NCBI GenBank assembly: GCA_943370385.1
Contig: CALRQT020000008.1
Location: 118,214 to 150,213, forward strand
DNA from: Pseudanabaena sp. UWO311
Lineage (GTDB): Bacteria; Cyanobacteriota; Cyanobacteriia; PCC-6307; Cyanobiaceae
DNA: 32,000 nucleotides
Direction of reading: 5' to 3'
The translations under genes were made by a program, and so were the position numbers. The notes below the pieces were generated by a model. It searched no databases and had not been told where the DNA came from. It was given only the letters and a program-made list of their open reading frames with translations. Below, piece after piece: positions 21,693-31,570 of this stretch. Position 1 is the stretch's first letter, and each line of letters begins with the position of its first letter.

Positions 21693-23396
21693 TTGCCTGG
21701 GGCCGCTGTGCTGACGGGTCTGCGCCTTGAAAACATTGCCCTGATTGAGAGCTTGGAGCTCGGCTTCAGCGGTGGCTTCACGGTGCTCACCGGGGAAACC
21801 GGCGCTGGCAAGTCGATTTTGCTCGATGCCCTCGATGCTCTGCTGGGGGGCGCCCAGGGAGCGGCGGGCGCCAGGTTGTTGCGCCAGGGCCAGCAGCGGG
21901 GCCGCATCGAAGCCAGTTTCAGCGTGACGCCGCCCCTACAGAGCTGGCTAGAGCAGCAGCACTTTGAGCTGGAGGAGGACGACCTACTGCTCAGTCGCGA
22001 ATGGCGTTTGCAGGAGGAGCGGCTCACCAGCCGGCACCGGCTCAATGGCGTGGTCGTCAGTCGCGCCCAGGTGCAGGAGCTCCGTCCCCTCCTGCTCGAT
22101 CTCACCGTTCAGGGCCAGACCCAGCAATTGGGCCGGCCCGGCCAACAGCGCCGCTGGCTCGATCGCTTTGGCGGCCCCGAGCTGGCCCAGGCCCTCGAGC
22201 CCGTGGCGCTGGCCTATCGCCACTGGAAACAGGCGGCCGCCACCCTGGAGACGGCCCGGCGCGATTGGCAGCAGCTGCAACAGGAACGGCAACAACAGGA
22301 GCAACTGCTGCTGGATCTCGAAGCCGCCCAATTGGACGATCCCCAGGAGCGTCAGGAGCTGGAGCTGGCCCAGGACCGGCTCGTGCACGGGGTGCGCCTA
22401 CAGGAGGGGGTGATGACCCTGCTGGGTCGGCTGATTGAGGGGGCCGACCAGGCTCCCTCTGCCCTGGACCATCTCGCCGCCTGCGAACAGGAGTTGCAGC
22501 TGCTGGAGGCCATCGATCCCAGCCTGCTCGCCCTGCGCCAGGCCTGCACCGATGGCCTGGCCCAACTCCAGGACCTGGCCCGCGATCTCGATCGCTATGG
22601 CGCCAGCCTGGAGAGCGATCCCGAAACCCTGGCCTCCCTGCAGGAGCGCATCGCCCAGCTGAAGACCCTGGAGCGGCGCCATGGCCAAGGCCTGGGCGAA
22701 TTGATCGCCCGGCGTGATGAGCTGCGCCAGCTCCTGGCCCCCGGCGGCGGAGAGGCGGCGCTCAGTGAGCTCGAAGCCCAGGAGCAGCAGAGCCGTGGTC
22801 GGCGGGATCGCTGCAACGGCCAGCTCAGTGCCGCCCGCCGCCTAGCGGCCACGGCCCTGGAGGGCCAGCTGATGGAGGCCCTGCGGCCCATGGGCCTGGC
22901 CAATGTGCGCTTTGCCGTGGCCATCAGTGCGGCGGCGGCCAGCGAGGAGGGCGCCGATGGGGTGCAGTTCCTGTTTTCAGCCAATCCGGGCCAACCCCTG
23001 GCTCCCCTGGCCGAGGTGGCCTCCGGCGGGGAGATGAGCCGCTTTCTCTTGGCCCTGAAAACCTGCCTGGCGGCGGCCGATCCCCACGTCACCCTGCTGT
23101 TTGATGAGATCGACAGTGGCGTCAGCGGCCGGGTGAGCGGCGCCATGGCGGCCCTGCTGCAGAAGTTGGCCCAACAGCGCCAGGTGTTCTGCGTCACCCA
23201 CCAGCCCCTGGTGGCCGCCGCCGCCGAGCACCATTTTCTGGTGTCCAAATGGGTCGAAGCGGGCCAGACCCAAACGCGAGTGTCCCAACTGCGGGACACC
23301 CAGGCCCGCCAAAAGGAACTGGCGGAACTGGCCGGGGGCGATTCCGGCGGGGCCCGCAGCTATGCGGCCAGCCTGCTCGCCAGCCCCCCGGGCTGA
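21693..23396 (+). CDS. recN: DNA repair protein RecN
   Basis: 567-aa ORF with LRLENIALIESLELGFSGGFTVLTGETGAGKSILLDAL (Walker A), a long coiled-coil middle and the C-terminal SGGEMSRFLLAL..LLFDEIDSGVSG. The start is TTG 21693 or GTG 21708. Confidence 0.9.
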   Translation: MPGAAVLTGLRLENIALIESLELGFSGGFTVLTGETGAGKSILLDALDALLGGAQGAAGARLLRQGQQRGRIEASFSVTPPLQSWLEQQHFELEEDDLLLSREWRLQEERLTSRHRLNGVVVSRAQVQELRPLLLDLTVQGQTQQLGRPGQQRRWLDRFGGPELAQALEPVALAYRHWKQAAATLETARRDWQQLQQERQQQEQLLLDLEAAQLDDPQERQELELAQDRLVHGVRLQEGVMTLLGRLIEGADQAPSALDHLAACEQELQLLEAIDPSLLALRQACTDGLAQLQDLARDLDRYGASLESDPETLASLQERIAQLKTLERRHGQGLGELIARRDELRQLLAPGGGEAALSELEAQEQQSRGRRDRCNGQLSAARRLAATALEGQLMEALRPMGLANVRFAVAISAAAASEEGADGVQFLFSANPGQPLAPLAEVASGGEMSRFLLALKTCLAAADPHVTLLFDEIDSGVSGRVSGAMAALLQKLAQQRQVFCVTHQPLVAAAAEHHFLVSKWVEAGQTQTRVSQLRDTQARQKELAELAGGDSGGARSYAASLLASPPG

Positions 23397-23481
23397 ACCT
23401 CAGCGGCGCCGGGACTCCGCCCGGGCGGACCCAACCGGGCCCCGGGTCCCACCTAGAATCGCCCCTTATCGGATCCCGTGG

Positions 23482-26400
23482 ATGGCTCGCGCGAGCGCCA
23501 GTTCTGATCGGCCTGCCACCAGCTCCGCCGCGCCAGCCCGCACCATCAACGAGAAGGCGGCCCAGTTGAGTGCCAGCCGCCTGCTCAATGGCGGCAGCCT
23601 GGAGGACGTGATCCGGGTGCGGGGCGCCCGCCAGCACAACCTCAAAAACGTTGACCTGACGATTCCGCGCAATCGCCTGGTGGTGTTTACCGGGGTCAGT
23701 GGCAGCGGCAAAAGCTCCCTCGCCTTTGACACGATCTTTGCCGAGGGCCAGCGCCGCTACGTCGAGAGCCTCTCGGCCTATGCGCGCCAGTTTCTGGGCC
23801 AGGTGGATAAGCCCGATGTGGATGCGATTGAGGGGCTTTCACCCGCCATCTCGATCGATCAGAAATCCACCAGCCATAACCCCCGCTCCACCGTTGGCAC
23901 GGTGACGGAAATACAGGATTATTTGCGGCTTCTCTATGGCCGCGCCGGCGAACCCCATTGCCCCCAATGTGACCGCTCGATCCGCCCCCAAACCATCGAT
24001 GAGATGGTGGACCAGATCAGTGCTTTGCCTGAAGGTACCCGCTATCAACTGCTGGCGCCGGTGGTGCGCGGCAAGAAGGGCACCCATGTGAAATTACTGG
24101 GCGGTCTGGTGGCGGAGGGTTTTGCCCGGGTGCGCATCAATGGCGAAGTGCGCGAACTCGCCGACAACATCGAACTCGATAAGAACCACGCCCACCACAT
24201 TGAGGTGGTGGTGGACCGGTTGGTGGCCCGTGAAGGCATCCAGGAACGGCTCACCGATTCCCTGCGCACGGCCCTAAAACGCGGGGATGGCCTGGCTTTG
24301 GTGGAGGTGGTGCCCAAGGCCGACCAGCCCCTGCCCGAGGGGCTGGAGCGGGAACGGCTCTATTCGGAAAACTTCGCCTGTCCGGTTCATGGTGCCGTGA
24401 TGGAGGAACTGTCGCCCAGGCTGTTCTCCTTCAACAGCCCCTATGGAGCCTGCCCCGATTGCCATGGCATCGGCCACCTGCGTAAGTTCACGCTGGAGCG
24501 GGTGGTGCCCGATCCAACGCTGCCCGTGTATGCGGCGATTGCCCCTTGGAGTGATAAGGATAATTCCTATTACTTCTCAATGATTTATAGTGTGGGCGAA
24601 GCCTTTGGCTTTGAAATTAAGCTTCCCTGGAACCAACTCACAACCGAACAGCGGGATATTTTGCTGCATGGCAGCACCGAAGAGATCGCCATCCAGGCCG
24701 ATAGTCGCTACCGCAAGGGTCAGGCCTACATGCGCCCGTTTGAGGGCATTTTGCCGATCCTGGAGCGGCAACTGCGCGATGCCAGTGGCGAAGCCGTTCG
24801 CCAAAAATTAGAGAAGTTCCTGGAGATGGTGCCCTGCGCCACCTGTAAGGGTTTGCGGTTGCGCCCCGAGGCCCTGGCCGTGAAGGTGGGCCCCTATGGG
24901 ATCCATGAACTCACGGCCGTGAGTGTGGGCGAAAGTCTGCTGCGGATCGAGGCCTTGATGGGGGTGGGGGCCAGCGAAGGGGCCGATCCCCTGATCACGC
25001 CCCGCCAGATCCAGATTGGTGATCTGGTGTTGCGCGAGGTGCGCATGCGCCTCAAGTTTCTGCTCGATGTGGGCCTCGATTACCTGAGCCTGGATCGCCC
25101 CGCCATGACCCTCTCCGGTGGCGAGGCCCAGCGGATTCGCCTGGCTACCCAAATTGGCGCGGGTCTCACGGGTGTGTTGTATGTGCTCGATGAACCGAGC
25201 ATCGGCCTGCACCAACGCGATAACGATCGCCTGCTGGCCACCCTGTTCAAGCTGCGGGATCTCGGCAACACCCTGATCGTGGTCGAGCACGACGAAGACA
25301 CAATCCGGGCCGCTGATTATGTGGTGGACATCGGTCCTGGCGCCGGCGTCCATGGCGGCCACATCGTGGCCCAAGGTTCCTTAGAAAACCTGCTGACGGC
25401 AGAGGAGTCGTTAACGGGCGCCTATCTGAGCGGCCGTTTGTCGATTCCTACCCCTGCCCAGCGCCGCAGCAGTGGCAGTCGGCGCATCAGTTTGGTGAAT
25501 TGCCAGCGCAACAATCTCAACGGCTTCGATGTGGACATTCCCCTCGGACGCTTGGTGTGCGTGACCGGCGTGAGTGGCAGTGGCAAGAGCACCCTGGTGA
25601 ATGAGCTGCTCCATCCAGCCCTGGAGCACAAGTTGGGCATGAAGGTGCCCTTCCCGGCGGGCCTGGATGAACTCAAGGGCATCAAGGCGATCGACAAGGT
25701 GATCGTGATTGACCAATCCCCGATCGGTCGTACACCCCGCTCCAACCCGGCCACCTACACGGGCGCCTTCGATCCGATTCGCCAGGTGTTTGCGGCCACG
25801 GTGGAGGCCAAGGCCCGCGGCTACCAGGTGGGCCAGTTCAGTTTCAACGTGAAGGGCGGTAGGTGCGAGGCCTGCAGCGGCCAGGGCGTGAACGTGATTG
25901 AGATGAATTTCCTGCCCGATGTCTATGTGCAATGCGACGTGTGTAAGGGTGCTCGCTACAACCGTGAAACCCTGCAGGTGACCTATCGCGGCCACAACAT
26001 TGCTGAAGTGCTGGAGATGACGGTGGAGCAGGCCGCCGAGGTGTTCTCCGCCATTCCCCAGGCGGCGGATCGCCTGCGCACCCTGGTGGATGTGGGCCTG
26101 GGCTACGTCAAACTCGGCCAACCCGCCCCCACCCTCTCCGGCGGTGAAGCCCAACGGGTGAAGCTGGCCACGGAACTCTCGAAGCGGGCCACCGGCAAGA
26201 CCCTCTATCTCATCGATGAACCCACCACGGGCTTAAGTTTCTACGACGTCCATAAATTGATGGATGTGATGCAGCGGTTGGTGGATAAGGGCAACTCGAT
26301 CTTGGTGATCGAGCACAACCTCGATGTGATCCGCTGCGGCGACTGGGTGATCGACCTAGGACCCGAAGGCGGCGACAAGGGCGGCGAGATCGTCGTGGCG

Positions 26401-26499
26401 GGCACGCCTGAGGAGGTGGCGGAGCATTCCACTAGCCATACGGGCAGGTATCTCAAGCAGGTGCTGGCGCAGCATCCGCCGATGGTGGTTGATGCCTGA
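23482..26499 (+). CDS. uvrA: Excinuclease ABC subunit A
   Basis: The track ORF is 23362..26499. The ATG at 23482 is followed by IRVRGARQHNLKNVDLTIPRNRLVVFTGVSGSGKSSLAFDTIFAEGQRRYVESLSAYARQF. Both ABC modules and the zinc-finger cysteines are present (CPQCD, CPDCHG, CEACSGQG..CDVCKG). Confidence 0.97.
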   Translation: MARASASSDRPATSSAAPARTINEKAAQLSASRLLNGGSLEDVIRVRGARQHNLKNVDLTIPRNRLVVFTGVSGSGKSSLAFDTIFAEGQRRYVESLSAYARQFLGQVDKPDVDAIEGLSPAISIDQKSTSHNPRSTVGTVTEIQDYLRLLYGRAGEPHCPQCDRSIRPQTIDEMVDQISALPEGTRYQLLAPVVRGKKGTHVKLLGGLVAEGFARVRINGEVRELADNIELDKNHAHHIEVVVDRLVAREGIQERLTDSLRTALKRGDGLALVEVVPKADQPLPEGLERERLYSENFACPVHGAVMEELSPRLFSFNSPYGACPDCHGIGHLRKFTLERVVPDPTLPVYAAIAPWSDKDNSYYFSMIYSVGEAFGFEIKLPWNQLTTEQRDILLHGSTEEIAIQADSRYRKGQAYMRPFEGILPILERQLRDASGEAVRQKLEKFLEMVPCATCKGLRLRPEALAVKVGPYGIHELTAVSVGESLLRIEALMGVGASEGADPLITPRQIQIGDLVLREVRMRLKFLLDVGLDYLSLDRPAMTLSGGEAQRIRLATQIGAGLTGVLYVLDEPSIGLHQRDNDRLLATLFKLRDLGNTLIVVEHDEDTIRAADYVVDIGPGAGVHGGHIVAQGSLENLLTAEESLTGAYLSGRLSIPTPAQRRSSGSRRISLVNCQRNNLNGFDVDIPLGRLVCVTGVSGSGKSTLVNELLHPALEHKLGMKVPFPAGLDELKGIKAIDKVIVIDQSPIGRTPRSNPATYTGAFDPIRQVFAATVEAKARGYQVGQFSFNVKGGRCEACSGQGVNVIEMNFLPDVYVQCDVCKGARYNRETLQVTYRGHNIAEVLEMTVEQAAEVFSAIPQAADRLRTLVDVGLGYVKLGQPAPTLSGGEAQRVKLATELSKRATGKTLYLIDEPTTGLSFYDVHKLMDVMQRLVDKGNSILVIEHNLDVIRCGDWVIDLGPEGGDKGGEIVVAGTPEEVAEHSTSHTGRYLKQVLAQHPPMVVDA

Positions 26500-26687
26500 G
26501 GTTCTTCTTAGATAGTCCCAATGTATCTTATTGGCTAAAGACACGACAACTGAAGGGATTTTAATATAGATGCGTTGTGCCAGGATTTCTGGCCTTTATT
26601 CTCTATCTTGTTATTTTTGGCAGTTAATTTGTTGTTGGTGCCAAGCAGCAAGGGGTTGCAGTACGTTTTGCTTTCTTTTGGCTGTTA

Positions 26688-27599
26688 TTAAGGTCCAACC
26701 GTTTTTTCATTTAGGCTTTTATATAAAGCCTCGTCAACCGACATTCCTATTGCCTTAACTAGTCGCAGGCGAACTAATAGCTCTTCCTCTTTGCTGAGGA
26801 GACCGTTAGTAAAACGCTTGTTCAAAGAGCTAAAGTTTCGAACGTGGGAGAGGGTAAAAATGTCAATAGCTGCGAAGCGCCAGTCCCCTAAATGGGCGGC
26901 ACACAGTGGTAGGGCGAAACGATCTAATCCATAGCCACTTCGAATGCCAGTGCTAAATGGCATGGCCAGTTCGAGAAGGTCAGTGCGTATGAACGGAGCC
27001 ATAATTTCAACAATTGGCACGCGATGTAAGGTATGGCCAGGTCGCTGACGCAGCCATCCATATTCTTGGCTAAGACTGCTTGTGTGACTCACCGCTGGTT
27101 GTAAAGCCGAAAGGTTATAAATCCGTGCAAGTGCTAACAAGGTAATGACGTCGCTACTACGCAACATCACATCATCATCAATAAAGCCCGTGTAGTGGCC
27201 GGCCGGTGGTCTTGCCAGCCGTTGATAGGCCACTTCCATCAGATGACCCTTGCATTCAGTAGCTTCACTAAGGAGTTCCCATCCATGCGGATTACTGCCT
27301 GCTTCAAAGCCTTCGCCCGTCCAGTCGAACAGCACGACGCGACAGGGAAATTGCTGATCGACCAGCACACAGTGCCTGCCTCTTTGTGAAGCAATTACAA
27401 TCAGATCGTTTGGCTGGGCACTTGGATTAATAGTAGGCTTGCCATTAGTGATTGGATCCTGGCTTTCAAGTTCTTCGATTTTCTTTGCCATTTCGGGCAA
27501 AAATTGATCGCTATGGCTGTCAATAACCCAACGCTTCCATTGCAGTCGCTCTGCGTTGGGTGCCGCATCAAGTAGCTTGGGAAAGCTAATGGCAGCCAT
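26688..27599 (-). CDS. DUF707-like protein (putative glycosyltransferase-fold, function unknown)
   Basis: 303-aa ORF in low-GC DNA. It shares the ordered motif pattern I remember from plant/bacterial DUF707: RVVLFDWTGEG, TGFIDDDVML (DxD-like), LSALQPAV, IVEIMAPFIRTDLL and SGYGLDRF. An HMM search is needed to confirm this. Confidence 0.6.
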   Translation of the reverse strand: MAAISFPKLLDAAPNAERLQWKRWVIDSHSDQFLPEMAKKIEELESQDPITNGKPTINPSAQPNDLIVIASQRGRHCVLVDQQFPCRVVLFDWTGEGFEAGSNPHGWELLSEATECKGHLMEVAYQRLARPPAGHYTGFIDDDVMLRSSDVITLLALARIYNLSALQPAVSHTSSLSQEYGWLRQRPGHTLHRVPIVEIMAPFIRTDLLELAMPFSTGIRSGYGLDRFALPLCAAHLGDWRFAAIDIFTLSHVRNFSSLNKRFTNGLLSKEEELLVRLRLVKAIGMSVDEALYKSLNEKTVGP

Positions 27600-28043
27600 G
27601 GATATACAGTTGACTAGGTTGGCCTGCTGTTAGTATGACTGATCAACGGCACTTTTGGCAGGAAATTTTTATTACGGATCTTATCTGTTGGATAGCTTAA
27701 AGTAGGATGGTTTTTGGGAGGCGATGGAGGCTTTAATTAAGGGCTTAAGATGTTTGGATCACAACAGTGTCCCCCCGCCGATTTATCCCGCTGCCATAGC
27801 TCATGCACTTGCCCCTCTAGGGCTTGAAAACCCTTGGGGATTGGGTGGCGGGGAAAGGCGCAGGCCACCGGCAAGATCTGGCCTGAATCGTCGCTTTGAT
27901 CGATGTCAATAATCGCTTGATCTCCAAATTGACCTTATTAGGGGGAGAAGATGATTATTTTTGCATCGGCATCGATTGATAATTGGCGCGACTCTCAATA
28001 AACGAAGCTGCCGATATTGGCGGCTGTGTACACATTATAAAAA

Positions 28044-28226
28044 ATGGAGCTTGAAGCTGCTCTCTGTGAATTCCTAAGCAGAGTGGCTCCAGACTTGGTG
28101 ATGCAACCATTTTGTTTTGAATTGGCAGGCCAGTACCTTGTATTCATCGAGAATGGCGGCCATTGGTGCTATGCAGTAATTTTTTCTAATGATAACCTAG
28201 GCAAGACCAATTTATATTGGAATTAA
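28044..28226 (+). CDS. Hypothetical small protein (60 aa)
   Basis: This ATG-initiated ORF lies in about 38% GC DNA (23/60 GC in 28141-28200), where a 60-codon open frame is less expected by chance. It has no recognisable family and could be a fragment. Confidence 0.25.
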   Translation: MELEAALCEFLSRVAPDLVMQPFCFELAGQYLVFIENGGHWCYAVIFSNDNLGKTNLYWN

Positions 28227-28292
28227 TTTAGCTTGGTCAATCATCCTTCCTGCTTGTTATACATCATCAAGCCAATCTTTTGGCCGCGCCTA

Positions 28293-28637
28293 TCAGCGCT
28301 GCGGTTCTTGCGCTTCCTTGCCACCAGGGCGATAACGATCCATCACAGTATCCAAGCTCTGGTTGGTGATCTTTGGATTACTCTGTTGTAAACAGGCCAG
28401 AAGAACGGCCTTATTGGCCTGCACGCGCTCCCTGGTGGGACGATTCCCTTGGGAGCTTGGCTGAACTTTGGAAAAACAGGTCTTAAATACGCTAGCTGGA
28501 ATGCCAAGATCACGGCTGATTTGATCCACGGGTCGCCTTGGATCATCCGATAACATCGCTGGCGCAGCTGCTCCAGCCTTGGGGGTGCTGGCGATTCCCA
28601 TGAGGATGAATAGCTGAATCAAGATGGCTCGTTGCAC
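28293..28637 (-). CDS. Small secreted protein, unknown family (about 114 aa, 2 Cys in the mature part)
   Basis: The track ORF 28293..28841 would overlap the divergent gene. An in-frame GTG at 28637 gives the signal peptide (M)QRAILIQLFILMGIASTPKAGAAAPA followed by MLSDDPRRPVDQISRDLGIP..VLLACLQQSNPKITNQSLDTVMDRYRPGG. Confidence 0.5.
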   Translation of the reverse strand: MQRAILIQLFILMGIASTPKAGAAAPAMLSDDPRRPVDQISRDLGIPASVFKTCFSKVQPSSQGNRPTRERVQANKAVLLACLQQSNPKITNQSLDTVMDRYRPGGKEAQEPQR

Positions 28638-28761
28638 CGGTTTGGTATTTTGGAGTTTGCATTTATTTTTGCACGCCTTGACCCGCGATGATGGCTGTCC
28701 TGCTTCCAGATCATGGCTTAAGCTGGTCAGTAAGAATTGGCCAAATCTTCGTAGGTGACCC

Positions 28762-29139
28762 TTGACCATTTTTCGTTCTCTTTTCGTAGTCTGCTTAGCG
28801 TTGGTATCCACGTCTGCTGCCCTAGCTGAAACCTGGACCACAACAGGGCGTTGTTCGTTTAATCGGGCATCTCAGAACTGCACGGTGCGCGCTAGTGCCG
28901 ATCTGTCCTCTCCCGCTTGGAGCGCCCGCTATGTGTTGCTATGGGCCGATGGTATCCGTCAGACGATAACAGTGGGCAGTGATGTGCGGGCTACGGTCAT
29001 CGTTGGCGGTAAGAGTATCGCCGCCGAGCAATTGCCCCCCGATCAAGCGGGCCATTGTGTGATTCGCTCCGTCACTGGCAATGTGACCAAATTTGATTCC
29101 GGTCGCCTTGGGGTGGTTAAGGATCAGCCTGGCTGTTGA
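28762..29139 (+). CDS. Small secreted 4-Cys protein, unknown family (125 aa)
   Basis: The TTG start is preceded by AGGTGA. A clear Sec signal, TIFRSLFVVCLALVSTSAALA, is followed by ETW. The mature part has Cys in the contexts GRC, QNC, GHC and PGC. It is on the same strand as, and 109 nt upstream of, the alpha-CA gene. Confidence 0.55.
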   Translation: MTIFRSLFVVCLALVSTSAALAETWTTTGRCSFNRASQNCTVRASADLSSPAWSARYVLLWADGIRQTITVGSDVRATVIVGGKSIAAEQLPPDQAGHCVIRSVTGNVTKFDSGRLGVVKDQPGC

Positions 29140-29248
29140 GTTGTTGGGGTTGCTCTGGTGCAGGTGTAGCTATTAAATCGAAGATGAATGGGCGATCCAG
29201 GCGAATTTCTGCTATGGTTTGATAGTTAATGTACTAACATTGATTTCC

Positions 29249-29992
29249 ATGGTTTCCAAGGTTGTTCCAGCAACTGCTTTGCTGCTGAGCTTGGCCCTGC
29301 CGGCCGCGGGTCTCGCCAAGCCCAAATACGGTTATTCCGGTGATATTGCCCCTGAAAAGTGGGGTAAACTCAGCCCTGATTATGCAGCTTGTTCCATTGG
29401 TACAAGTCAGGCTCCCCTCAATATCATTACGGCGAAAACCGTTAAGGATTCTAAGAGCCTGCCCCTAAAGCCCAATTACATCCCTGGCCCCGCCGAAGTA
29501 GTCAATACTGGCACTGGTATTCAAGTCAATCTTAAGGGGGACCTAAAGATCGGCCCAGCCGATTATAAGTTGTTGCAGTTCCACTTCCATGCCCATGGAG
29601 AGGAGGCGATTAACGGTGTTCATTATCCCCTCAATGCCCACCTGGTCCATGCCAACAGTGCCGGCAGCCTTCGGGTGATTGGTGTCAATCTCAAGGTTGG
29701 AGCTCCGAATGCCTATTTGGATTCGTTCTGGAGCAAGCTGCCTGCCAAGAAGGATGGAACGGTGAAAGTTGAACTGCCTTCCCTGGCTGGTTTGTTGCCC
29801 AAGTCCCTGGCTTACTTCACCTACACCGGCTCCCTGACCACCCCTCCTTGCACCGAGGGCGTTCAGTTCTTCATTCTTAAGGAGCCTGTGACGATTTCGG
29901 CCAAGCAACTAGACACCTTCTTAAAACTGTACCCAAACAACGCCCGTCCCGTTCAGCCTTTGAATGGACGTGTGATCAAATCCAGCAACTGA
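29249..29992 (+). CDS. ecaA: Alpha-class carbonic anhydrase with a Sec signal peptide (EcaA-like)
   Basis: The ATG at 29249 gives MVSKVVPATALLLSLALPAAGLA. The mature part begins YGYSGDIAPEKWGKLSPDYAACSIGTSQAPLNI and contains QFHFHAHGEEAINGVHYPLNAHLVH (three zinc His), YTGSLTTPPCTEGV and NARPVQPLNGR. The Cys pair is typical of periplasmic bacterial alpha-CAs. Confidence 0.9.
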   Translation: MVSKVVPATALLLSLALPAAGLAKPKYGYSGDIAPEKWGKLSPDYAACSIGTSQAPLNIITAKTVKDSKSLPLKPNYIPGPAEVVNTGTGIQVNLKGDLKIGPADYKLLQFHFHAHGEEAINGVHYPLNAHLVHANSAGSLRVIGVNLKVGAPNAYLDSFWSKLPAKKDGTVKVELPSLAGLLPKSLAYFTYTGSLTTPPCTEGVQFFILKEPVTISAKQLDTFLKLYPNNARPVQPLNGRVIKSSN

Positions 29993-30021
29993 TTGCTGCG
30001 GCTATTATCAACGAAGTTTTA

Positions 30022-30053
30022 GGGCGCTTCCTATCAGGAGCGCCCCTTTTTTA
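30022..30053 (+). terminator. Rho-independent terminator of the alpha-CA gene
   Basis: GGGCGCTTCC-TATCA-GGAGCGCCC (one bulged T) is followed by CTTTTTTAT, about 30 nt after the stop at 29992. Confidence 0.65.
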
Positions 30054-30182
30054 TGGCCGAAATGCAGCCACGGTGACCTTGTTTAGGGGTTGGTTATGGC
30101 TCCCTATCTATGGGTTTGGCACTGGCTTTTGCCTCAATGATCGTTGTTCCTGTTATTGCTTTTCTTGTCCTCCTAGGGCTCC

Positions 30183-30602
30183 CTAGTCCTCAGGGGAACG
30201 GGGTTGGCCCTGCCGTTTCCCCTTAATGGCGCTGCGCTGTTTTTTGGCCGCTAGCCGCCGCTCCACCGATCCCCGCGTCGGTTTTGTGCGTCGCCGCGGC
30301 GGCGCAGGAGGGGCGATTGCTTCCTTCAGCAGGTCCACCAAACGCCGTTGGGCGGCGACCCGGTTCTGCCATTGGGAGCGGTGTTCCGAGGCCACGATCA
30401 CTAAGGCTCCATCCACCAACCGTGGAGCCAACCGCTCCAGGGCTCGGGCCTTGAGCGCCGGTGGTAGGGCGGCAGAAGATGCCAGGTCAAAGAGCAACTC
30501 CACCCGGGTATCGGTGCTGTTGACGTTCTGACCGCCGGGTCCGGAGGAGCGAGAAAAACGCCACCCCAACACGGCCACGGGAATCGAAACTCCTGGGGTC
30601 AA
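30183..30602 (-). CDS. arfB: Alternative ribosome-rescue factor ArfB (peptidyl-tRNA hydrolase, YaeJ family)
   Basis: 139-aa ORF (TTG start) with the GGQ motif SSGPGGQNVNSTDTRVEL, then EHRSQWQNR and a basic C-terminal tail (RRRTKPTRGSVERRLAAKKQRSAIKGKR). Confidence 0.85.
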   Translation of the reverse strand: MTPGVSIPVAVLGWRFSRSSGPGGQNVNSTDTRVELLFDLASSAALPPALKARALERLAPRLVDGALVIVASEHRSQWQNRVAAQRRLVDLLKEAIAPPAPPRRRTKPTRGSVERRLAAKKQRSAIKGKRQGQPRSPED

Positions 30603-30640
30603 GGTGAGGTGGTCGTTGCGCTGATCGATGGCTAGTCACT

Positions 30641-31387
30641 TCAGATTACGGTTACTTTGCCAGTGCCGATATCGAAGTAGGCCGATTTGATCGCTAGTTT
30701 GCCGCTGGCCTGGGCCTGCTTGAGCACGTCGCTGCGTTGGGTGAGCGTAGCGGCCGAATAGAGGGCATTGCCCTGAATGGCCTTGGTGAGATCGTCGCCA
30801 GGCTTGAGCGAGGCTCGAATCGGCTTCACCAACCCTTCCAGCAGCGGGGTGAGGGGTGCGGAAGCCATCGCGGCCTTGACGGCACCACAGGCGCTATGGC
30901 CCATGACCAGGATCAGCGGCACTTCCAGCACGGCGACGGCGTATTCCATCGAAGCAATCGCATCGTCAAAGGCCGTATTGCCGGCGGCCCGGACCTGGAA
31001 CAGTTCACCGGAACCGGCAGCAAAGATCCATTCCGGGGCCACCCGGGCGTCGGCGCAGCTCAGCAGGGCGGCCCAGGGCTTCTGGCCTTCAGCTAAGGCG
31101 GCTGGGTTGATTTGGCAACCAGCGGCAAAGATCGACTTGGTTAACTCCATGCGCTGGCTTGCCGTGGGTGCACTCACCGCTTGCTGCCAGGCCTTGCTGA
31201 ATGTGCCATTACGTCGCAACAGTTCAGCGAGGGGATCCGTAGGGGGTGAACAGACGGTGAGATCCTTGGCCAGTTTCGAGTCCGTAGCGCCCGCAGCCTG
31301 GGCAGCTCCGCCGCTCAACTTCGGTAGGACTAGCCCACTAGCAACCAAGCTAGCTGCTTGGAGTAAGTGACGTCTAGAAAGTGCCAT
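30641..31387 (-). CDS. Beta-class carbonic anhydrase with a twin-arginine (Tat) signal peptide
   Basis: The track ORF is 30641..31402 (TTG). The ATG at 31387 gives MALSRRHLLQAASLVASGLVLPKLSGGAAQAAG. The beta-CA zinc-site motifs are SCADARVAPE (C-x-D-x-R) and VMGHSACGAV (H-x-x-C), with FQVRAAGN also present. Confidence 0.85.
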   Translation of the reverse strand: MALSRRHLLQAASLVASGLVLPKLSGGAAQAAGATDSKLAKDLTVCSPPTDPLAELLRRNGTFSKAWQQAVSAPTASQRMELTKSIFAAGCQINPAALAEGQKPWAALLSCADARVAPEWIFAAGSGELFQVRAAGNTAFDDAIASMEYAVAVLEVPLILVMGHSACGAVKAAMASAPLTPLLEGLVKPIRASLKPGDDLTKAIQGNALYSAATLTQRSDVLKQAQASGKLAIKSAYFDIGTGKVTVI

Positions 31388-31570
31388 TAGAATGTCATTC
31401 AATGGTCTAGCCGGGTAAGCCCTGGCATTTAGGGCAAATCTAGGGGCGAAACTTTGAAAAGGGTCTCACCAGGGCCCCTTTAAGCCAGAGCGATGGGCTG
31501 ATGGGGGCCGTCTTGCGTGAGCGACCAACGAGGACGGGCCAGATTTCAGTGGCCCAGACGACAGGGGTGA

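Follow-up and report, generated by a model that had tools for sequence, protein, structure and literature searches.

A small, old and variable genomic islet directly downstream of uvrA in a picocyanobacterium, probably fed by integrative elements

What does an abrupt fall in guanine-plus-cytosine (GC) content directly behind a conserved gene signify in a GC-rich picocyanobacterium? We addressed this question in Pseudanabaena sp. UWO311 (Cyanobiaceae; assembly GCA_943370385.1, here G000; 3.07 Mb in 29 contigs, 64.5% GC), using a window of 32,000 nucleotides (contig CALRQT020000008.1, positions 118,214 to 150,213; G000:C8:118214-150213) in which the original prediction had placed a low-GC accessory block of about 3.7 kb between uvrA and arfB and had left its acquisition open between an old decayed island and import by homologous recombination of the flanks. 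We compared this junction with eight genomes of the same genus (the congeners, G001-G008) and surveyed 201 genomes of the family from 64 genera. Our working explanation, which we consider likely, is that the block represents a flexible genomic islet, small and old, at a variable site directly downstream of uvrA that is common to the genus and is subject to integrase-fed turnover and later trimming. Low GC has persisted at the locus for a long time and is not the mark of a recent foreign origin, and the arfB-proximal half of the block, comprising a small secreted-protein gene (o125) and an alpha-class carbonic anhydrase gene (alpha-CA), is shown by the comparisons to have been inherited within the genus.

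The compositional step is as sharp as had been predicted. The islet has 49.2% GC compared with 62% in both flanks, and a profile in 500-bp windows runs at 0.58-0.63 over uvrA from position 23501 and at 0.61-0.63 across 25001-26500, drops to 0.49 in the window straddling the uvrA stop codon, stays at 0.44-0.53 from about 26500 to about 30250 and is back at 0.60-0.63 beyond; the hand counts reported with the prediction (21/60, 27/60 and 23/60 in the block, 41/60 in recN) were all exact. GC at third codon positions is 0.43-0.57 in the open reading frames (ORFs) of the islet versus 0.76 in uvrA and 0.70 in arfB. Within the islet, the variable half (26500-28292) has 46.3% GC and the genus-conserved half (28293-30182) has 52.0%. 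An abrupt fall at the uvrA stop and third-position values far from those of the flanks are what would be seen if a foreign donor of lower GC had recently contributed a strain-specific cassette of 3.7 kb, and the restriction of the first islet gene, o303, to two of the nine genus genomes would fit the same explanation. This possibility is taken up again below, once the relatives have been described.

Set against the rest of the genome, the dip is not exceptional. Compared with all 3.68-kb windows of G000, the islet has a GC z score of -2.7, and 2.5% of the windows are equally low or lower. With low-GC segments defined by a 1-kb window and a threshold of 0.54, the genome contains 119 such segments totalling 392 kb, among them 51 of at least 2.5 kb that total 293 kb (~10% of the genome). 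The tetranucleotide distance of the islet ranks at the 96.7th percentile when measured from the genome mean and at only the 4th when measured from the centroid of G000's own low-GC windows; its signature after normalisation for base composition is unremarkable (76th percentile). The islet is, in other words, a typical member of a large class of low-GC islets in G000. Such figures could also be read to mean that there is no island at all and that we see ordinary compositional variation, e.g. weakly expressed resident genes drifting towards AT: ~7% of the 3.68-kb windows and ~10% of the genome are similarly low, the GC-corrected signature does not stand out, and the low GC persists over genus-level divergence. 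We find this hardly credible, because the dip matches exactly the sole stretch of variable content between conserved anchors and because the genes within it are sporadic in the family: of the 201 genomes, 14 have alpha-CA (from 4 of the 64 genera) and 14 have o303. Thus, the suspicion that GC dips are ordinary in this genome is justified in that dips are common and unjustified in that the dip between uvrA and arfB coincides with variable gene content; this coincidence argues for an islet rather than for gene-to-gene variation. The sporadic distribution of alpha-CA, o303 and o125 likewise bears out the prediction that the cargo is accessory only. The islet, its anchors and its immediate surroundings are composed as follows (window positions):

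23362-26499, plus strand: uvrA, the left anchor, 62% GC (PF17760, 1.8e-38; PF17755, 3.9e-29); 97-98% amino acid (aa) identity in all eight congeners.
26300-26525, plus strand: the last ~190 bp of uvrA and ~25 bp downstream, a segment that is duplicated in relatives (fragment alignment and nhmmer profile) and single-copy in G000.
26500-30182, no strand: the low-GC islet.
26688-27599, minus strand: o303, a 303-aa protein resembling glycosyltransferases of the GT-A fold (structural model and Foldseek; no Pfam or NCBIfam family).
27770-28163, minus strand: pseudogene of a 133-aa gene (tblastn with the G006 ORF L016:4500-4901:-).
28293-28841, minus strand: o182, a putative small exported protein (homologues in G002 and G008 only; no family match).
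28762-29139, plus strand: o125, a small secreted Cys-containing protein (26 homologues; nearly genus-restricted).
29249-29992, plus strand: alpha-CA, a periplasmic-type carbonic anhydrase of 247 aa with a signal peptide (PF00194, 2.1e-38).
30022-30045, plus strand: strong terminator-like hairpin of nine pairs (seven G-C) followed by a T run, directly after the alpha-CA stop.
30183-30602, minus strand: arfB, the right anchor, where GC is back to 62-65% (NF006718 ArfB equivalog, 152 bits at a cut-off of 100).
30641-31402, minus strand: a beta-class carbonic anhydrase gene (beta-CA) in the conserved right flank (PF00484, 1.2e-30).

The domain and equivalog matches confirm the identities that had been proposed for uvrA, alpha-CA and arfB, and the hairpin agrees with the terminator that had been proposed near alpha-CA.

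The same junction is variable throughout the genus. All eight congeners carry accessory cargo downstream of uvrA, which is low in GC except in G007, and the content differs in each. In the six genomes with uvrA and arfB on one contig, the interval between them measures 3.7 kb (G000), ~4 kb (G001), 4.8 kb (G003), 7.2 kb (G006), 7.8 kb (G008) and 9.9 kb (G002), at 47-53% GC; in G007, uvrA is followed by other accessory genes of higher GC and without orthologues in G000, and the contig was not followed to arfB. The cargo of the congeners includes UDP-galactopyranose mutase (Glf), DUF3431 proteins, a PPC-domain protein, fragments of the IS3 insertion sequence (IS) and secreted FGE-sulfatase/CHRD/DUF4114 proteins of 785-799 aa. 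The IS3-type fragments of G003 lie inside its interval at L015:2753-3396. G001 has o303 and lacks alpha-CA, and the alpha-CA/arfB junction is common to G002, G003, G004, G005, G006, G008 and a lake-metagenome scaffold, L064. The closest similarity of the G000 islet changes along its length, from G004 at the left junction (94%) to G001 in o303 (82%), G006 in the pseudogene (71%) and G003/G005 in the right half (87-90%), and this mosaic argues that deletion and homologous recombination shaped the islet in its present form.

How old the arrangement is can be read from L064, in which uvrA (98% aa identity) and arfB are separated by an island of 11 kb. Starting from uvrA, this island consists of a haemolysin-type gene, a DDE transposase gene (intact, L064:12155-13723), a 677-aa GT4/methyltransferase gene, o303 and an intact 133-aa gene, followed by an o125 homologue, a 933-aa PPC-domain gene and alpha-CA next to arfB. 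Window positions 26705-28142, from o303 through the pseudogene, are collinear with L064 at 71.5% identity over 1454 contiguous bases, and DNA identity is 77.1% for alpha-CA and 77.2% for arfB in the same order. Islet and flank are about equally diverged from L064, and the gene order predates the split between the two: o303, the 133-aa gene, o125, alpha-CA and arfB were already arranged in this order in the common ancestor with the L064 relative. The GT/methyltransferase gene following o303, the IS, the haemolysin-like gene and the large PPC-domain gene are absent from the islet of G000, which is a reduced version of an L064-type island in which the 133-aa gene is broken. Taken together, the pseudogene, the truncated glycosyltransferase operon and the collinearity with a larger island support an old decayed island, i.e. 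the first of the two options that the original prediction had offered.

A recent insertion from a foreign donor is very improbable in the light of these comparisons. The same gene order is present in L064 at 71-77% DNA identity; alpha-CA is monophyletic in the genus and adjoins arfB in six of the eight congeners; o125 is nearly restricted to the genus; the pseudogene speaks for long residence; and the congeners hold cargo at the site, low in GC except in G007. A strain-specific reading of the block does not survive the position of alpha-CA in these six congeners and, in another genus (g62), after uvrA, and the homology searches for a donor lineage identified picocyanobacterial sequences as the closest relatives of every gene, all named closest homologues being picocyanobacterial. 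An assembly or binning artefact joining foreign low-GC DNA to the contig might be considered for a draft of 29 contigs, yet its probability is negligible because the islet is internal to a 153-kb contig and because the uvrA and arfB junctions recur in the independent assemblies G001-G008, L064, L065 and L066.

What feeds the site is suggested by the end of uvrA itself. Partial copies of the uvrA 3' end of ~110-190 bp lie between cargo modules in G001, G002 (two copies) and G008. All displaced copies start near the same position in uvrA, at about residue 978-986, and the longer ones also keep a G-rich motif of ~30 bp located 3' of the uvrA stop. A profile of the uvrA end searched with nhmmer finds two to three copies in G001, G002 and G008 and one in the G000 genome. 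The first copy in G002 and the DNA downstream of it are orthologous to the live uvrA end and the downstream DNA in G008, which argues that a 3.5-kb module entered G002 inside the uvrA end, which it replaced with one of its own while displacing the original. In a family survey that scored at most two copies per genome, 14 of the 186 genomes with a match, from eight genera, have at least two uvrA-end copies; a second copy is present in G187, G288, G096 and G159 as it is in G001, G002 and G008. Two genomes of genus g10, G187 and G288, encode a tyrosine recombinase (PF00589; 2e-15 and 8.5e-17), whose gene is separated from the displaced copy by ~250 bp and occupies the far end of the insertion. 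Because displaced copies occur in relatives and integrases adjoin them in G187 and G288, we conclude that the uvrA 3' end is, as judged from sequence, an integration site in this family. G187 also contains a pair of genes (118 aa and 388/392 aa) twice, at L045:442-2082 and L045:7220-8872, one pair inside the integrase element and the other beyond the displaced uvrA end, as expected for two related elements that are stacked; the pair inside the integrase element, which was the one scanned, matched no Pfam family. Decayed copies of the uvrA 3' end were also observed on other contigs of G001, G002 and G008 (L041:7597-7816, L042:7652-7876, L043:160-384 and L044:1743-1934), mostly at transitions from low to high GC, which suggests old elements or rearranged pieces of islands away from uvrA.

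Integration into the 3' end of a protein-coding gene has well-known precedents. The elements e14 and phage 21 in icd of E. coli, and ICESt1 and ICESt3 in fda of Streptococcus thermophilus, integrate in the 3' end of their target gene and carry a replacement for it, and CIMEs are integrase-less derivatives of such elements. The uvrA islands of the relatives resemble these elements and the CIMEs in that the gene stays intact by means of a new 3' end and the old end persists as a decaying fragment downstream; the first module of G002, which is bounded by both copies and has no integrase, is CIME-like. G000 differs from the icd and fda cases in that only the outcome is seen, namely an intact uvrA followed by low-GC cargo with no second repeat, and in that the process is known here from sequence.

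Based on the relatives, we propose that cargo turnover is driven by integrative elements that enter uvrA within its last ~190 bp, a step that is shown in the relatives only. Each element would supply a replacement uvrA end and push the old end, together with older cargo, further downstream. In G000, deletions and homologous recombination among congeners would then have trimmed and shuffled the modules and erased the attachment (att) scars and the integrase. The products of the cargo genes (the GT-A-fold glycosyltransferase-like o303 protein, the small secreted proteins and the exported carbonic anhydrase) would act at the cell surface or in the periplasm, as is usual for such islets. That an integrase-bearing element founded the islet of G000 is a conclusion we infer from the behaviour of the site in the relatives.

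Several observations weigh against this mechanism. Searches of the whole G000 genome for a displaced uvrA fragment (blastn, tblastn and the nhmmer profile) returned only uvrA itself, and no integrase remnant was found in the islet. No integrase was found among the congener-island ORFs examined, the integrase-bearing cases being from another genus. L064 has no displaced copy of the uvrA end between uvrA and arfB; its island carries a DDE transposase instead and may have been built by transposition or by plain homologous replacement. In G004, alpha-CA has 79% DNA identity compared with 86% in the flanks, and this higher divergence suggests that descent was not purely vertical and involved some recombination. 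Finally, several of the relatives are fragmented assemblies, in which absences such as that of o303 in G004 may be gaps.

The scans of G000 are in line with the predicted lack of an integrase, a transposase, a tRNA and flanking direct repeats. tRNA and Rfam scans of the whole window gave no match, there are no direct repeats of more than 22 nt in 25800-30800, a Pfam scan that included PF00589 detected no integrase or transposase domain in the islet, and tblastn with the G187 and G288 integrases had no match in the islet and a single one in G000, at C1:287376-288440, outside the window. A 17-nt repeat (26184-26200 and 27860-27876, 16 of 17 positions identical) was considered as a remnant of uvrA and was rejected, as the second copy lies inside the pseudogene and the last 110 residues of UvrA have no tblastn match there.

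The missing scars are what would be expected if the site were a pure replacement island, in which the cargo between uvrA and the alpha-CA/arfB side is swapped among congeners only by homologous recombination of the flanks and integrases have had no role in forming the islet of G000. Neither G000 nor L064 shows an att scar or an integrase, the mosaic similarities to G004, G001, G006 and G003/G005 fit such swaps, and glycosylation-type cassettes alternate at one place (o303 with the GT4/methyltransferase gene versus Glf with DUF3431), as they do in flexible islands of the replacement type. We nevertheless judge this account unlikely, because displaced uvrA ends are present at this site in three of the eight congeners and in eight genera and integrases adjoin them in G187 and G288, which argues that site-specific insertion does feed the locus. 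Insertion by integrases and homologous replacement are not mutually exclusive, and the IS genes inside the G003 and L064 intervals argue that transposition remodels the site as well.

A stronger version of the explanation by integrative elements is that the last ~190 bp of uvrA serve the whole family as a dedicated attachment site for tyrosine-integrase elements of a single lineage and that the G000 islet, including alpha-CA, is the eroded residue of cargo delivered by them; we put this forward tentatively and rather doubt it than believe it. The sole G000 homologue of the uvrA-site integrases (59% identity) lies outside the window in a low-GC islet of 4.1 kb (L063:1470-5684; G000:C1:286969-291183), which also contains a fragment of an IS200-like transposase and is flanked by direct repeats of 129 bp that are 81% identical, the left repeat of which falls within the N-terminal remnant of a gene for methylpurine-DNA glycosylase (mpg). 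This islet looks like an integrative element that targets mpg, another DNA-repair gene, and on the same tentative reading this integrase lineage may specialise in the ends of repair genes (uvrA and mpg).

Among the individual genes of the islet, alpha-CA starts with the ATG at 29249 and scores 132.8 bits against PF00194 (cut-off 27); its best solved relatives are the bacterial (periplasmic) enzymes 4c3t (7.6e-53) and 6im0 (1.1e-49), with which its three zinc-binding His residues (HxH and a third His) align. In the alignment to these structures, the Thr-Thr-Pro-Pro-Cys loop and the Cys pair are retained, the position of the proton-shuttle His is occupied by Thr, and Asn stands in place of the Glu that comes two residues ahead of the third zinc His. 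The gene adjoins arfB in G002, G003, G004, G005, G006 and G008 at 84-92.5% aa identity. In the tree, the picocyanobacterial sequences group in a single clade that a long branch separates from the sampled proteobacterial ones, and the genus forms a sub-clade with 100/100 support. In genus g62, a conserved recN-uvrA block ends with alpha-CA, which follows uvrA immediately, and synteny breaks behind alpha-CA. In genera g63 and g65, loci of ~3.7 kb around alpha-CA contain no adjoining uvrA, and larger loci place the gene at other low-GC sites. A foreign donor of alpha-CA was sought and rejected: the nearest non-cyanobacterial sequences, from Burkholderiales, Rhodoferax and Dyella, do not exceed 51% identity and are set apart by the long branch. 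Like the EcaA-type external alpha-CAs of cyanobacteria (PMC9570166, PMC11360081), the G000 protein is an alpha-class enzyme with an N-terminal signal peptide, and its gene is accessory rather than universal (4 of 64 genera). It differs in belonging to a separate picocyanobacterial clade and in having Thr aligned to the shuttle His.

The stop codon of o303 is 188 bp from that of uvrA. We found 193 homologues, every named one of which is picocyanobacterial; within the genus, the gene is present in G000 and G001 (87% aa identity). The AlphaFold2 model (pLDDT 89.9) has as its top Foldseek matches exclusively GT-A enzymes (TarS, WrtF, GlfT2 and K4CP), with E values of 5e-6 to 5e-4 and template-modelling (TM) scores of only 0.40-0.46, and the Asp pair D142/D143 is invariant across 37 homologues. 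Pfam and NCBIfam searches assigned no family to o303, o182 or o125. The label DUF707-like, which the prediction had given to o303, was not confirmed: the G000 protein has no match to DUF707 (PF05212) even at E <= 1, and among the 37 homologues there are only sub-threshold matches, to DUF707 in five (best E 0.017) and to GT2 in eleven (best E 0.0097). As modelled, the fold is GT-A-like, and the resemblance to DUF707 would be one at the superfamily level only. We also observed that o303 homologues of other genera (L053-L058) have 57-71% GC, mostly within ~0.1 of their own flanks, compared with 49-53% in G000 and G001, which argues that the low GC is specific to the locus or lineage.

The reading frame of the pseudogene next to o303 is interrupted by four in-frame stops and by one frameshift near 28041, and the 133-aa ORF of G006 aligns to it by tblastn (E 8e-39) in two frames with stops. 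The gene is intact in G006, and the intact copy in L064 also adjoins o303. The ORFs 27724-27912(+) and 28044-28226(+), which had been listed as orphan small genes, were rejected as such, being antisense to the minus-strand pseudogene. The o182 protein is 65-66% identical over its full length to its counterparts in G002 and G008, that of G008 being a 114-aa ORF with a hydrophobic N-terminus; the o182 ORF overlaps the start of o125 by 80 bp, and its true start is probably internal. A search of 5.8 billion clusters gave only 26 homologues of o125, which with few exceptions are 77-91% identical. The gene precedes alpha-CA in G002, G003 and G008, and its homologue in L064 is 56% identical.

On the right side, the alpha- and beta-class carbonic anhydrase genes of G000 flank arfB. 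The beta-CA is 90-93% identical (aa) in six of the seven congeners with data there; G006 has no match, and the contig of G007 was not followed that far. In G006 and in L064/L065, genes for spermidine synthase and arginase are the neighbours of arfB instead of beta-CA. On the left side, the longest uvrA ORF begins ~40 codons before its second Met (residue 41); this N-terminal extension (window 23362-23480) is rich in Pro and Arg and is unmatched in the alignments of most relatives, and the true start of uvrA is probably the internal ATG.

Flexible genomic islands have long been described in picocyanobacteria (PMC7522525). Like those of Synechococcus, Cyanobium and Prochlorococcus (PMC7522525), the G000 islet has a fixed site, strain-variable cargo and a GC content below that of the core, and it shares with them the glycosyltransferase-like and surface or secreted cargo and the occurrence of many islands per genome. 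It is unlike typical flexible islands in that it is only 3.7 kb long, is anchored on the protein-coding uvrA rather than on a tRNA gene, and has one half (o125 and alpha-CA) that is stably inherited. In Prochlorococcus, elements are stacked in tandem and separated by partial tRNAs (bioRxiv 10.1101/2020.12.28.424599). The islands of the relatives are similar in arrangement to these tycheposons (bioRxiv 10.1101/2020.12.28.424599), in that modules are separated by partial 3' ends of the target, newer elements push older ones further in, and, in G187 and G288, an integrase lies beside the displaced copy. They are unlike tycheposons in that the target is the 3' end of uvrA and not a tRNA, and the G000 islet has neither partial copies nor an integrase.

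These findings imply that, where the genome of a picocyanobacterium is rich in GC, an abrupt drop is the sign of a long-lived flexible locus and not necessarily of a recent import, since the low-GC genes of G000 have stayed low in GC through genus-level divergence. The most useful by-product of the analysis is the attachment site at the uvrA end, together with its integrase-bearing versions: in at least eight genera, the uvrA 3' end is a landing pad for accessory DNA, at which integrase-bearing and integrase-less elements are stacked. A protein-coding target is thereby added to the tRNA-centred view of how islands form in picocyanobacteria, and the uvrA end becomes a concrete site where active elements, and the exchange of genes for surface glycans and inorganic carbon, can be sought in lake populations.

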